Assembly (NCBI RefSeq): GCF_050920415.1
Contig: NZ_CP169310.1
Source: Escherichia coli
GTDB taxonomy: Bacteria; Pseudomonadota; Gammaproteobacteria; Enterobacterales; Enterobacteriaceae
DNA: 64,000 nt
Reading direction: 5' to 3' (one strand)
Below, one piece after another: positions 38,101 through 56,100 of this stretch; position 1 is the first letter of the stretch, and each line of letters opens with the position of its first letter. Made by a program: the position numbers.

Positions 38101-41100
38101 CAACATCACTGCCTGAGCAAATTCGTGTACATGATTATATCCGGGATCGGAAAAACATCCGGAAAGTTCCGGTAGTAACGGAAAAGAACGGCGCAGTAAA
38201 TCATGATAATATTCAGCATTATATTGCCTAGAATTAAAACGAGTTACCGGTGCTTTTACCCGGGAAATAGATTCCTGAAAAAAAGCCTCCTGAACATCTC
38301 CAAGGGCGAAAATATCCAGCTTCATTCCGGCTCGTTCATGAGCGAGAATTTCATTGACAATAAATGTTTCTGAAAAGCGGGGATAGCGTTTAACCACATA
38401 TCCGACATAAGGGTGTTTATTATCCATTACACTCTCCATGCCATTGATTTTAATTATTTTCTCTCCGCGCTGTAAATATCGCGTTCATTTTTTCTGTAAA
38501 GGAATGCAGCCCATTCAGACTGAGGTAAAGTCGTGGATCTGAAGGACACCAGTCGGAAATCAGCCAATCAGTTATTGACTGTGGCGTCAGACTGTCCGGA
38601 TGCAAACATGTAACCAGATTCTTTTCTGCCATCCGTGAAGCACGTATCCATTGCTCAAGACGAGGAACAATACGGGGAATAATCAATGCCCGTTTCCGTA
38701 ATGAAAGAATTTCCCGTAAGGTGTTATATCCCCCCATTGCCACCACGCTGTGCGTATGCTGTAGAAGAAAAAGAGGATCAGATACAAAACGAATAATATG
38801 TAAATCATTACGCATGGACGCAATACGCTGTAATGATGTCACTTCCTCCCGAGCCATCTGGCTACCGGTAAGAATAACACCGTCCATCCCTGGCGGTAAC
38901 AATGTCTCTGCAAATACAGATGCAAGGTGGTAGCCATCCTGCCCTCCCCCTGTAAGACATAATACGAATGGACGAGAAATCAGAGACTGAAATTGCTCAT
39001 CCTGTAACACCGATGGAGATAATGGAACATCCGGATATCCAAGAAAACTGATTTTTCGGTATACTGATGGTTCCGGAGCAAGATCAAGCGACAAATCATA
39101 GAATGAACGATCGCCATAAATCCATATATCAGAATAATACTGACGGACAATCGTATAATTATCTGCAGCATGCCATTGATGACGAACAACTGATGGTTCA
39201 TCAATAATATCCCTGAGTCCAAGAATCAGATGCACATTATCATCAACCAATTCCGGAAGCACCGGCAGCAGTTCTGATAACGCCCCAGCAGGTACATTAT
39301 CCACAACCATTACATCCGGACAATATTCACTCAATGCAGCTCGAATTATCTGTCTCCGAAGGCTAACCAATTTCCGGGTATTATTGCCCAGTGACCGGGG
39401 GTGATATTTGCCGCACAACGTTTTGGCATAGGCTGGTAACGTAAGAATATCTGAGCGTTCAGGTAGTGTAAATAATCCGGATTCACGGGCACTGTTAATA
39501 ATCAAAATTTCAGTATCAGAAAACCTTTTCTGAACTGCTCCTGCAAGCAAAAGATTTCGCCGTAAATGCCCAAGCCCCATCGTATCATGAGAATAAAACG
39601 CCAGCTTCATATCATCAATAAATTTAAAATGTCAATATTTCTATCATTTTTAAATAGCTACCGCACTAATTATAACAATTAGCATTAAACTTTTTAACCC
39701 ATTTTGTTTTTAGATTTAATGTTTTAAATACTGGCAGATACTCAGCAATTTTCCCAACGAGATAAAATGCTATTATTTTTTAACATCCTTTTACACCAGT
39801 ACCCAAGTATATAAAATAAATAATAAGTCATCTTTCTAAATAATTTTAACTAATTGTGTACTCCTCTTTAAAATGTGCACAATTAGTTAAAACTTGGCTT
39901 CTACATTCTCTAGATGTACACATCCCTGTTTGCAAGGCTGAGGTGTACTGGCAATAGCGGACACCACCATTTGTTCTTTTTCTAAGCAGCCATCTGATAA
40001 TATTTTATCCTGAAGGCTGCCGGGGAGATATTCCCAGACGAGAGTGACGACGCTGACGATTGTAAAAAATCTCAATGTATTCCCGTATTACTGAGATGGC
40101 CTCATCCCAGCTCTTAAAACGATAGTTGCTCAGACTTTCATTTTTCAGTGTTCCCCAGAAGCTTTCCAACGAAGCGTTGTCGTAACAGTTACCTTTACGC
40201 GACATTGATGTTTTCAGACCAAACTGTTCCTGTATGGCCCTGTAATCGTATGCTCAGTACTGTGAACCACGATCGGAGTGGTGGATTATCCCGGCAGGTG
40301 GGCGCTGGTTCCTGAGCACCATAAACAGGGCTTTACCCGTCAACTCTTTCGTCATGCGCTCTCCCATGGCGTAACCGACAATTTCGCTCGTATAAACATC
40401 TTTGACGCCAGCGATATACAGCCATCCTTCCCGGGTGGCAACATACGTTATATCTAGTGGTCAACAAAAACTGGCCACCGCGTTAGAGTTTTTCCAGTAT
40501 CGATTTTCCGATTCGTTTGGGGGTAACCCACCGTTATATTCGTGCGGTCTTAGTGCGCTGTAATATCCAACGATAGAGCCTGCGGTAATGCTTATTCCCG
40601 ACGGTTCATGCCTGACAATTACATATAAAAATATTCCGGAGGGGCTATCCAGCCCCTCAACAGAATAAGTTATCAGCGATATCTGCTATCAGAAATCATA
40701 CCGAATACCCAGTCTCCCTTCAGCATCGGTCTTAAAGTAACCATCAAAACTGCTGTTCACTTTTGCCTGTACTGACAGTTTATCTGTCAGCTTTCCGTTG
40801 ATACCAAACGAAACGGTATAGCGGTCAGCTTTCTCTGCATCATAGTGACGGGCTTTCCAGTCATCACGTAGGGTCATTCCGGGCATATCGTTAAACGTGA
40901 TATTCCGCCAGATACCTGCCTTCAGCGTCATATTTCCAAATAATTTTTCTGCCTCAACCCCGGCTTTCAGCCACAAGGCATCGCCATCATGAAGCTCCAC
41001 GCTCCGCTCCCGGCCCTGCAGACGATTTCCGTCCACCCGTGCACCGTTCAGTGAAACAGTCGGTGTTATCGACATATCAAGAGGGGATGCATACATCTTC

Positions 41101-53100: not shown

Positions 53101-56100
53101 CGTGGCATAAGCCCCGTCAGCAGACACCGCCCCCAGGTAACTCAGCCCCAGAACAGCCCCGGCGCTGACGCCCTGCCAGTCCTGGTTAAACACCCCGCCG
53201 GTGCGCAGTGTCAGCCCGTCCAGACCGTAACCGTATGACGCCGCAAACACACCGCCTTTCAGGTCACTGTCATCGTCAGGCAAACCGGCTGCCACACTGA
53301 ACTCGTGCTGCCCCGGACTTAACTGCCCGGCCATCACCGACAACGGGAAGTTCTGTACCTGCTCGCGCCCGTCTTCACCGGTGATTTTCATGGTCACATC
53401 ACCACTGGTGTACAGCGGCACATCCGTGATGGAGAACGGCCCCGCCGGCACGATCTCCGAATGCAGCAACCGCCCGTTCTGTGTCAGCGTCACCCTCGAC
53501 GGCCCGTTCGCAATGCCGCTGAACACCGGGGTATACCCCAGATTGCCCGGCTTCATGCTGTTGTTCCGGCTCAGCGACACGCCGTACGTTCCCGTACTGC
53601 CCAGCAGACTGTCCCCGGTGGATGTTTTCCCGACCGCCAGGTCCGCGCTCAGTGCGCGGATGGCCCGGGTGGCCGTAAACATGTTTATCGTGGCGGAGTT
53701 ATCCCCGCTGTCACCGCCACTGGCCGTGGCAGAAGAACTCACCACCCAGCGCCCGATATTGGCTTTCAGGTCCGCTGAGCCAAAGGCCGAGGTGTTATTA
53801 CGGCCGGTGTTGGCGTTCACGTTATAGTTCACGCGAAATGCACTGGTCCCGTAATCCCAGTCCACATTCTCCGGCATCTTCACCAGCCCCTTCTGGGGAA
53901 TGGACAGCGCCAGACTCTGGGTGGAAACATCAAAATCCACCTTCACTGACGGGGCTTTTGTCAGCACATAGCACTGTCGTGTGGCGTCATATCCCTCACG
54001 AAAGTAATCTGCACTGACGTAAATCCCGGCCTTCGTCAGCCATGCCTCTGTCAGACACAGTTCATTACTGTCCTGTGGTGTCACATCCAGTATCTGTTTC
54101 CCGGCCTCCTTCCCGTTCAGGGACAGGTCAACCAGATAACGCCCCGGCGCATAGCTGCCGTTCAGGGCTGCCCAGAGTTCCGGATTAACCCCGGCACCAC
54201 CCTGGATAAAGGACATATCCAGTTTTTCACCTGCAATACCTGTGGCACTGGCAAAAGCAGCTGATACGGCAAGCGCAAGTGCGGCCCGACGGAAAAACAC
54301 GGACGAAACCGGCTCAGCGACTGCCTTCTTTCCTGCACACACAATCCTTTTCTCCGTTACTGATACGTGACCACAAAGGTCAGTGCACCCGTGTATTCCC
54401 CCGCCTTCACGTTCGCCGGAAACACCGGCTGCGCACGAAAACGAAACTGTCCTTTAGCAGCAAACTCCACCGGGTAATTCACCGAATGACTGTCCTGAGT
54501 CAGACGTCCGCGATAATCTGCCTGTGTATCCACCGCCCGCACATCCACGCGAACACCATCACCGGCACCGCGGGTGACCACGCCCCCTGCATCCAGCTGT
54601 CCCGGGTTACCAAAATCCAGGGTGGCGACCTGCCCTGCCTTAAAGGCTGAGCAGCCCTGAACCGTGGCACCGGACTCATACAGACGCACAGTGAAGTCAC
54701 GCGGAGGCACAGACGCCCCCGTGGACTTGCGGTAAGTCCCGAATGTCAGCCGGCCACTGTTGCCGGTGCTGTCCGCATCCACCACCACATGACAGGATGA
54801 CGCAACCACATCCATACTAAAAACCACCCGCTGAACAACATCCGCATAAGCAGAAGAACTAATTAAAGCAATTAGCGATATAAAGATCTTCACCCCCCCT
54901 CCCACAACAAATATCATTCAACGCATGCTCTTTGACTCCTATTAAATATCACTCCACCCCAAAAATTTAGCCAATAATGCACAAACAAAAAGCTCGGTGC
55001 ACAATTAGCTAACAGAAAAAACAGAACATATCTTAAATTTATTTAACTCCTGTAGTCTGTAGTTATCAGAGGAACTTAAGATGCTAAAAAGAATGACAAT
55101 AAATGCAATACTATGGCATATTGAGTCAAACATTGAAAACACACCTTTGGACATAAATGATTTAGTAAAATACTCGGGTTATAGCCGAAGATATTTACAG
55201 TTAATTTTCAAGAGATACACGGGAGTTCCTATTGGTTCATATATTCAATTGCGGAGAATTACCAGAGCTGCAACTCTTTTAAGAGCTACGCAGCTATCTA
55301 TTCTGGCCATATCAGAGCAGTTATTTTATGATTCACAACAAACATTTACAAGAGAGTTTAAAAAAAACACAGGCTACACACCCCTACAGTACAGAAAAAC
55401 TGACCACTGGACATTCTGTCAATCCCACAAGGGTAAAAAATATAATATATTGCTTCACTTACCTCAAATTTGTTGTGTTAATTCTGAGGTGTTTTATGGT
55501 ACAGAAATACGGTATATAGAAGAAAGCCCCTTTTTTAACCCAGCGTCAGATTATAAGTGGAATATAGTTGATACACTATTATCAAACAATAAAAACGTTT
55601 ATATATCACACAAAGTATCATCAGAAAAATGTGGAAAATTAGTGGTTAATGCCGTTGTATGGAGGCATGATAACTATTTCACCCCCCCCCGCGAAATCAA
55701 GAAAGGGCTTTTTGCTTACTTTACATTCAGGGGGGGTAGGGATGATTACTGGAAGTATATGCATAATATTCATACATGGTCTTTACCTATTTATGGTCTT
55801 CAGAGAGGGGGGGGATATGACATAGAAAAAATAACAAAGTATGGTGAAAATGACTTTCTGTTTGAATTTCATATTCCGATAAGAAACCCCAGCGCTATCA
55901 GTTAATACAGCCAACCTTTACAGTATAAAAAGCCCCCGTAAAAACAACTGTAATATTTATATGTTTAGTGGTAATAAACGCAAGGGGCTTGCAGATGATG
56001 ATTGGAGAAAATTATCCACTGAATGCATCAGGCGCAGCTAAAGTAACAACTTCTTTTTTTGCTGGTTATTAATCCCCCTGGAGAGGAACGACTTAGGTGC

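Follow-up and report, generated by a model that had tools for sequence, protein, structure and literature searches.

In a 64,000-nucleotide stretch of Escherichia coli DNA (contig NZ_CP169310.1; hereafter the window), four copies of a box motif are arranged as two inverted dyads, one upstream of an operon for glycosyltransferases and ABC export (the glyco operon) and the other between a K88-like fimbrial operon and the first of two genes described as AraC regulators. The motif is real and non-random, and by their sequences both regulators are members of the Caf1R family of Rob-like AraC/XylS proteins. We consider it likely that the two dyads are operators of the Caf1R type, to which the local regulators would bind to drive the fimbrial operon and, in trans, the glyco operon. 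Within this reading, the two Caf1R-like proteins probably bind the shared box, and the same proteins may switch on the glyco operon 15 kb away. The broader proposition, wherein Caf1R-family regulators encoded beside a K88/Lda-like operon also activate a plasmid glycan operon in trans through a second copy of the dyad, is offered more tentatively, as a serious possibility. The new element is modest and incremental, being a predicted non-fimbrial target operon that has no adjoining regulator gene, with a mechanism borrowed from a known system.

Four copies of a box motif form two inverted dyads

The preliminary description of this DNA had pointed to three related 16-mers, two of them forming a near-perfect palindrome with a spacer of 13 nucleotides (nt) upstream of the glyco operon and the third lying as a single half-site near the fimbrial operon. 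We find all three exactly where they were reported, at 39846-39861 (minus strand), 39875-39890 (plus strand) and 54997-55012 (plus strand). The palindrome, TTAACTAATTGTGTAC-n13-GTGCACAATTAGTTAA, is likewise as described, with arms of 16 base pairs (bp) that carry one mismatch and can be extended to 18 bp. The half-site near the fimbrial operon also stands, but it is not single. A left arm at 54967-54982, overlooked earlier and recovered by a relaxed scan, is matched to its partner at 13 of 16 positions across a 14-nt spacer. Because the half-site (hereafter site C) has this inverted partner, the window contains two dyads of the same geometry rather than a palindrome and a lone half-site.

The glyco dyad (39846-39890) is composed of box A, the left arm (39846-39861, minus strand), which reads GTACACAATTAGTTAA and is oriented to the glycosyltransferase operon, and box B, the right arm (39875-39890, plus strand; GTGCACAATTAGTTAA), which points away from the operon and into the side occupied by an IS600 fragment. 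In the fimbrial dyad (54967-55012), the left arm (54967-54982, minus strand) reads GTGCATTATTGGCTAA and is oriented to the fimbrial operon, and the right arm, site C (54997-55012, plus strand; GTGCACAATTAGCTAA), is oriented to the gene for regulator 1.

Several counts set these arms apart from chance. Inverted repeats of the quality of the glyco palindrome (arms of 16, at most one mismatch, spacer of at most 30) occur only three times in the window and not once in 40 first-order Markov shuffles. When up to two mismatches are allowed, the half-site has three matches in the window compared with 0.03 expected, and the degenerate pattern GTGCAYWATTRGYTAA finds exactly the four arms compared with 0.54 expected. 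In a position weight matrix derived from 20 arms, among them the four that it later scores, box A reaches 17.1 bits, the fimbrial left arm 19.1, box B 21.4 and site C 24.9, and the next-best site in the window (position 38048, within coding sequence) reaches 14.9.

Neither dyad appears to derive from the other by recent copying. A single segmental duplication as the source of both was rejected, as only a 12-bp core aligns between the two intergenic regions; the flanks are unrelated, and the glyco dyad is therefore not a recent copy of the fimbrial region. A Xer/dif/cer-like site and a CRP-like site were both dropped on inspection by eye, the first without a XerD arm and the second with a poor second CRP half-site.

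The motif resembles the Caf1R box and accompanies Caf1R-family genes

In the caf locus of Yersinia pestis, the caf1R-caf1M intergenic region has 15-nt repeats, with R1-R3 oriented to caf1R and R3' and R4' oriented to caf1M (PMC8470410). Repeats R3 and R4' are 14 nt apart, R4' overlaps the -35 element of the Caf1R-dependent PM promoter, which is a class II arrangement, and an oligonucleotide containing R4' is shifted by MBP-Caf1R (PMC8470410). In the pMT sequence, R1 and R3 read TGCGCAAATAGCTAA, R2 reads TGCACAAATAGCTAA and R4' reads TGCGCGAAAAGCTAA, and the inverted R4'/R3 pair is TTAGCTTTTCGCGCA-n14-TGCGCAAATAGCTAA. The 15-mer of site C, TGCACAATTAGCTAA, matches R2 at 14 of 15 positions, and the other arms have one to three mismatches to the consensus TGCACAATTAGCTAA. 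Given this match and the inverted pair laid out like R4'/R3, we infer that the motif is a Caf1R-type box in a head-to-head arrangement. Measured between 15-nt arms, the spacer is 15 nt in the glyco dyad, 16 nt in the fimbrial dyad, 14 nt in caf and 14-16 nt in other loci.

The proteins encoded beside the fimbrial dyad belong to the corresponding family. Regulator 1, the product of the first 'AraC' gene (55081-55905, plus strand), shares 40.5% identity with Caf1R across 97% of its length, and annotation of an identical plasmid shows its gene divergently linked to the chaperone-usher operon. Regulator 2 (56436-57284, plus strand; 282 amino acids, aa) is a paralogue with the same recognition helices. 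The Pfam domain HTH_18 covers residues 29-106 of regulator 1 (E = 3e-19) and residues 30-106 of regulator 2 (E = 3e-18); the C-terminal domain of regulator 2 matches Cass2 (1.4e-6) and GyrI-like (1.1e-5) models, and that of regulator 1 is weakly GyrI-like (4.9e-4). For both regulators the closest relatives of solved structure are Rob, MarA, SoxS and RamA, and for regulator 2 the alignment with Rob is full length. The recognition helices SGYSRRYLQ and YDSQQTFTREF are invariant in 11 aligned family members, including Caf1R and both local proteins, and homologues of the regulators are found on 371 plasmids in PLSDB (tblastn), Y. pestis Caf1R among them. The coding region of regulator 2 also holds a near-perfect palindrome of 32-34 bp (GGAGTGGATATGATTTAGAAATCATATCCACTC; 57169-57202), which spans the conserved GYDLEII motif.

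The suggestion in the preliminary description that the shared motif is a common operator for the local AraC regulators is thus supported, as far as sequence can support it, by family membership combined with a Caf1R box in an R4'/R3-like arrangement. Several further likenesses join the two systems, including identical recognition helices, a regulator gene divergent from a chaperone-usher operon, closely similar 15-nt boxes (TGCRCAAATAGCTAA in caf and TGCACAATTAGCTAA here), and a box end placed over a weak -35 element that is followed by a 17-nt spacer. They differ in that caf has five repeats, including the direct repeats R1-R3, whereas each site here has a single dyad. Unlike the Caf1R system, moreover, this plasmid has two tandem paralogous regulators and a second dyad at a non-fimbrial operon with no adjoining regulator gene.

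Caf1R itself is a Rob-like AraC factor, and its homologues LdaA, from the K88-like lda locus of enteropathogenic E. coli (EPEC), and AfrR, from AF/R1, are tied to chaperone-usher adhesin operons of E. coli (PMC6440114). The lda locus (locus for diffuse adherence) of atypical EPEC is K88/fae-like, as is the fimbrial operon here.

The same dyad precedes Caf1R-family genes in six or more diverged loci, one of them the E. albertii site described below. In plasmids 08-00022 and N96, the region between the fimbrial operon and the regulator gene is about 86% identical to that of the window and both arms are near-perfect (TTAGCTAATTGTGCAC-n14-ATGCACAATTAGCTAA); across homologous plasmids the fimbrial left arm reads TTAGCTAATTGTGCAC or TTAGCCAATTGTGCAC. 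In plasmid 06-00048, the adjoining operon is afa-like and the upstream DNA cannot be aligned, yet the dyad still lies beside the regulator gene. Family members with 45-49% identity to regulator 1, whose flanks likewise cannot be aligned, are preceded by the dyad TTAGCTAAATGTGCA-14-TGCACATTTAGCTAA on an F18 fimbrial plasmid (locus L015), by the arms TGCACGTTTAGCTAA and TGCACTTTTTGCTAA on another fae-like plasmid (L016), and by the arms TGCACAATAAGCCAA and CGCACAATAAGCTAA on a plasmid in which a gene for an AIDA-repeat autotransporter follows about 1.4 kb downstream (L017). We know of no published operator for LdaA or AfrR.

A blind scan of 100,044 species-representative genomes with the pattern TTAGC-N5-GYGCA-N14-16-TGCRC-N5-GCTAA yielded four matches, namely the Y. 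pestis caf locus, a site in E. albertii that is 66 bp upstream of a Rob-like gene, and sites in Brevibacterium and Gemmataceae that are about equal in number to the chance expectation of the scan. The dyad is not universal in the Caf1R family, since on two plasmids of enterotoxigenic E. coli (ETEC), p746 and ETEC-2264, nothing upstream of the Caf1R-like genes matches the box even when five mismatches are allowed, and a plasmid of E. fergusonii has a single weak arm, with four mismatches, upstream of its Caf1R-like gene. On the E. fergusonii plasmid (NZ_CP057211.1; L020 2501-5528), the Caf1R-family gene (38% identity) is directly followed by genes for a polysaccharide deacetylase, a GT4 glycosyltransferase and a VirK/YbjX protein.

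Across an entire 224-kb plasmid that contains a stretch identical to the window, the degenerate half-site occurs six times, and all six copies are paired, making three dyads. The third dyad, TTAGCCAATAATGCAC-n13-GTGCATTATTGGCTAA, lies outside the window (NZ_CP012499.1 99005-99049; L010 42006-42050) and is a perfect palindrome of the variant arm GTGCATTATTGGCTAA. It adjoins a decayed faeC-like pseudogene, which is a copy of the first fimbrial gene, together with fragments of insertion sequences (IS), and on these grounds it is the relic of a paralogous module of fimbrial operon and regulator. About 700 bp downstream of it are a 189-aa gene of unknown function and the tssB type VI secretion operon. 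A third Caf1R-like gene is also carried by the plasmid (NZ_CP012499.1 about 122675-123314; L011 15776-16415), where it is cut by IS630 within the DNA-binding domain and lies beside the second S6-family autotransporter gene. No box was found near this interrupted gene, and the idea that it was once joined to the glyco dyad was rejected because the junction sequences do not match.

Each dyad could serve as a bidirectional promoter module

The arrangement of bases within and around the boxes is consistent with activation by Rob-like proteins. In each arm the starts of TGCAC and GCTAA are separated by 10 bp, a distance that would allow one monomer with two helix-turn-helix (HTH) units to occupy successive major grooves. 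We therefore picture the arm as a marbox-like element, TGCAC-N5-GCTAA, that would be bound by a single Rob-like monomer, helix 3 contacting TGCAC and helix 6 contacting GCTAA. The boxes lie head to head, 13-14 bp apart, such that the outer GCTAA or GTTAA end would fall over a weak -35 element with a -10-like hexamer 17 nt further on, and each dyad would constitute a bidirectional class II activation module. When 18 arms are anchored on the box, the weak -35 consists of the final TAA of the box and the next three bases, and a -10-like hexamer starts 21 nt after the box end in nine of the 18, compared with zero to six at other offsets, a statistic that draws on partly homologous sequences. The published caf PM promoter, TAAACT-17-TAAAAT, has the same layout as the box promoters predicted here (PMC8470410 and the pMT sequence).

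At the fimbrial dyad, one arm would drive the fimbrial operon from a predicted promoter (54941-54969, minus strand; TAAATT-17-TTTAAT, as read from the sequence) whose -35 lies over the box end. The other arm would autoregulate regulator 1 through a predicted promoter (55010-55038, plus strand; TAACAG-17-TTAAAT) that is conserved in 08-00022 and 06-00048. At the glyco dyad, the left arm would activate the glycan-synthesis and export operon from a predicted distal promoter (39820-39849, minus strand; TAAAAT-17-TATTAT), with a -10-like TATTAT at 39825-39820 and a -35-like element that overlaps the end of box A; a generic promoter scan at box A returns TTAAAA-18-TATTAT. The predicted transcription starts are near 39813 (minus strand), 54934 (minus strand) and 55045 (plus strand). 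The right arm of the glyco dyad appears to be orphaned, because IS elements have replaced the DNA beyond it. The CTAG at 39910-39913, where IS630 has inserted in related plasmids, overlaps the -10-like hexamer of this orphan arm. If the regulators of the fimbrial locus act in trans on the glyco operon, fimbriae and surface glycan would be co-expressed. We present the promoter module as a prediction, because the sequences compared are partly homologous, the region is AT-rich, and a stronger box-independent promoter lies nearer the glyco start.

Does the glyco dyad couple the two operons?

The case for coupling begins with the persistence of the glyco dyad, which is kept in five plasmid variants. 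Box B is identical and the facing -10-like hexamer is intact in all five, and the only arm change among them is in 06-00048, whose box A reads GTGCACAATTGGTTAA, with bases that are found in other arms. Furthermore, the invariance of the recognition helices across the family makes it more likely that the surviving regulators would cross-recognize this dyad.

Several observations weigh against this reading and temper our confidence in it. First, the conservation of the glyco dyad is not statistically above that of its flanks, because the five close variants have diverged little. Second, both glyco arms carry GTTAA rather than the GCTAA that is nearly universal in the family (C at 0.84 in the matrix), so they may bind the local regulators less tightly, or may have belonged to a different regulator that has since been lost. 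Third, the DNA to the right of the dyad is disrupted by IS elements in every copy examined, such that a glyco-linked regulator may once have existed. Fourth, a box-independent, sigma-70-like promoter (39697 to 39669, minus strand; TTAAAA-17-TATAAT with a TG extended -10), stronger than the one predicted at box A, is situated about 60 bp upstream of the glyco start codon, and the glyco operon may thus not depend on the dyad. Fifth, the 14-nt spacer of caf differs from the 15-16 nt observed here between 15-nt arms. The inclusion of the scored arms in the weight matrix, and the partial homology behind the promoter-offset statistic, count on the same side.

The second and third of these points also favor the strongest competing explanation, that the glyco dyad once controlled a glyco-linked Caf1R-like gene that was destroyed by IS600 or IS630, and that the dyad is now silent or tuned to the lost protein and couples nothing. 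All the other dyads have a Caf1R-family gene roughly 40-120 bp downstream. Only 48 bp remain between box B and the IS600 end, and IS630 sits at CTAG 39910 in other plasmids. There is also a comparable relic dyad elsewhere on the plasmid, where the fimbrial gene has decayed and the regulator has been replaced by IS fragments, and the E. fergusonii arrangement described above places a Caf1R-like gene directly next to genes for a polysaccharide deacetylase and a GT4 enzyme. No intact ancestral glyco locus was found, as IS elements follow the dyad on its right side in each E. coli copy examined. When the first glycosyltransferase was used to search PLSDB by tblastn, it was recovered from only 10 E. 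coli plasmids, followed by rhizobial homologues at 30-35% identity. However, because the recognition helices are invariant, surviving regulators should recognize a box that differs at one position, and a dyad that had lost its function sits poorly with arms that have changed only to bases of other arms and with a facing hexamer intact in five of five variants. We therefore regard a purely relic glyco dyad as unlikely, though it deserves to be kept in mind.

Far less probable is that the host proteins MarA, SoxS or Rob use the boxes as ordinary marboxes, which would tie both operons to stress responses. The marbox consensus is AYnGCACnnWnnRYYAAAYn, and the arms fit much of it (GCAC, W, RYY and AA), although the fit is partial. 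To our knowledge, characterized marboxes are single asymmetric sites, in contrast to the paired inverted layout seen here and in caf R4'/R3. A strong similarity between the Caf1R repeat consensus and the MarA/Rob/SoxS site has been noted (PMC8470410). MarA, SoxS and Rob are the closest solved double-HTH proteins, helix 6 of the local regulators hardly differs from its counterpart in MarA and Rob, and the sites share a GCAC element that lies one helical turn from an A-rich element, with a predicted class II placement of the box over the -35. Helix 3, however, reads SRRYLQL in the local regulators and SKWHLQR in MarA and Rob, with differences at DNA-contact positions. Marboxes are highly degenerate, whereas the arms here are near-identical 15-mers kept beside Caf1R-family genes. 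Unlike the host system, this one has inverted site pairs in divergent control regions, and its regulators are plasmid-borne and adhesin-linked.

We give very little weight to the view that the palindromes act as an RNA stem-loop or terminator, or as a DNA cruciform, instead of as protein operators. The predicted RNA folds have energies of -19 to -21 kcal/mol with z-scores of -5 to -7, and at some loci (L010 and L015) both arms carry the same variant bases; such stability carries little meaning, however, because any palindrome folds automatically. No T-run or terminator-like site accompanies the dyads, and Rfam gives no match above noise. Moreover, the arms are often not complementary (13 of 16 positions at the fimbrial dyad; caf R4' and R3 differ at three), and each nevertheless keeps TGCRC...GCTAA. 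The direct repeats R1 and R2 of caf could not pair at all, the loop of 13-14 nt is not conserved in sequence, and the predicted transcripts start outside the dyad.

Two other possibilities raised in the preliminary description can be set aside. One was that the palindrome might be IS terminal sequence, as it abuts an IS3-family fragment. This truncated IS600-like element (39939-40454, minus strand) has its terminal repeat, TGAGGTGTACTGGCAATAGCGG, starting at 39939, and this boundary is outside the operator. With the element ends located in a complete IS600 copy, the right inverted repeat is found to begin at 39939, with 48 bp separating it from the palindrome, and IS600-like matches in thousands of E. 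coli genomes align only from about 39923 onward, which excludes the dyad. In plasmids 08-00022 and N96, IS630 lies at CTAG 39910-39913 with unrelated sequence beyond, and the dyad is intact. The position of the IS600 end, along with retention of the dyad where IS630 replaces IS600, leads us to reject the IS explanation. The other, a LuxR-type regulator, is disfavored because the dyad accompanies Caf1R-like genes in loci without such a protein, and the one LuxR-like open reading frame examined, of 197 aa at the distal end of the fimbrial cluster (46310-46903, minus strand), matches no NCBIfam family. Its C-terminus loosely resembles a LuxR-type HTH by eye, and it is probably the LuxR regulator meant in the preliminary description.

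Plasmid setting and other features of the window

The window is identical to part of E. coli virulence plasmids of about 224 kb, such as pCFSAN004181P of strain GB089. Plasmids of this kind bear sta1, ehx, two genes for serine protease autotransporters (SPATE), a type VI secretion cluster and the K88-like fimbrial operon. The glyco operon, our putative target (29432-39610, minus strand; RefSeq annotation of the identical plasmid stretch and open reading frames), encodes three glycosyltransferases, an ABC transporter, two kinase-family proteins, a porin of the alginate-export family and a nucleotide-sugar dehydrogenase, and the glyco dyad is situated 236-280 bp upstream of its first gene. The K88/F4-like (fae/lda-like) chaperone-usher operon is annotated at 47013-54917 (minus strand), divergent from regulator 1.

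Some weaker or unrelated sites were also encountered. Single matrix matches of 13 bits each occur at 2667 and 17449. The segments 2570-2681 and 17449-17560, which are two inverted duplicated segments near sta1 copies, carry the same weak box-like pair (13.0 and 10.9 bits), whose geometry is not dyad-like. Downstream of the LysR gene of a gentisate-pathway cluster is an inverted repeat (AATGCGATTCCGGTAC...GTGCCGGAATCGCATT; 11940-12001) whose 16-bp arms have one mismatch and are 30 nt apart.

Implications for the Caf1R family

The Caf1R family has been poorly studied outside Y. pestis, even though its members are present on at least 371 PLSDB plasmids, mostly from E. coli, where they are usually annotated simply as 'helix-turn-helix protein'. 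Some of these genes adjoin known adhesin loci, for example F18 and K88-like operons. If TGCAC-N5-GCTAA dyads are a family-wide operator, they could be used to predict targets. A 2022 review lists the existence of a trans target of Caf1R as an open question, with none known (PMC9820224), and the glyco operon is a concrete candidate for such a target in the Caf1R family. If our reading is true, a family so far regarded as dedicated regulators of the fimbrial operons to which they are linked would gain its first multi-operon regulon and its first target that is not a chaperone-usher operon. It would also mean that the display of an adhesin and of a surface glycan is coordinated on hybrid virulence plasmids of Shiga toxin-producing E. 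coli (STEC) and ETEC, a link that would concern plasmids that carry enterotoxin and enterohaemolysin genes in isolates from food and cattle.

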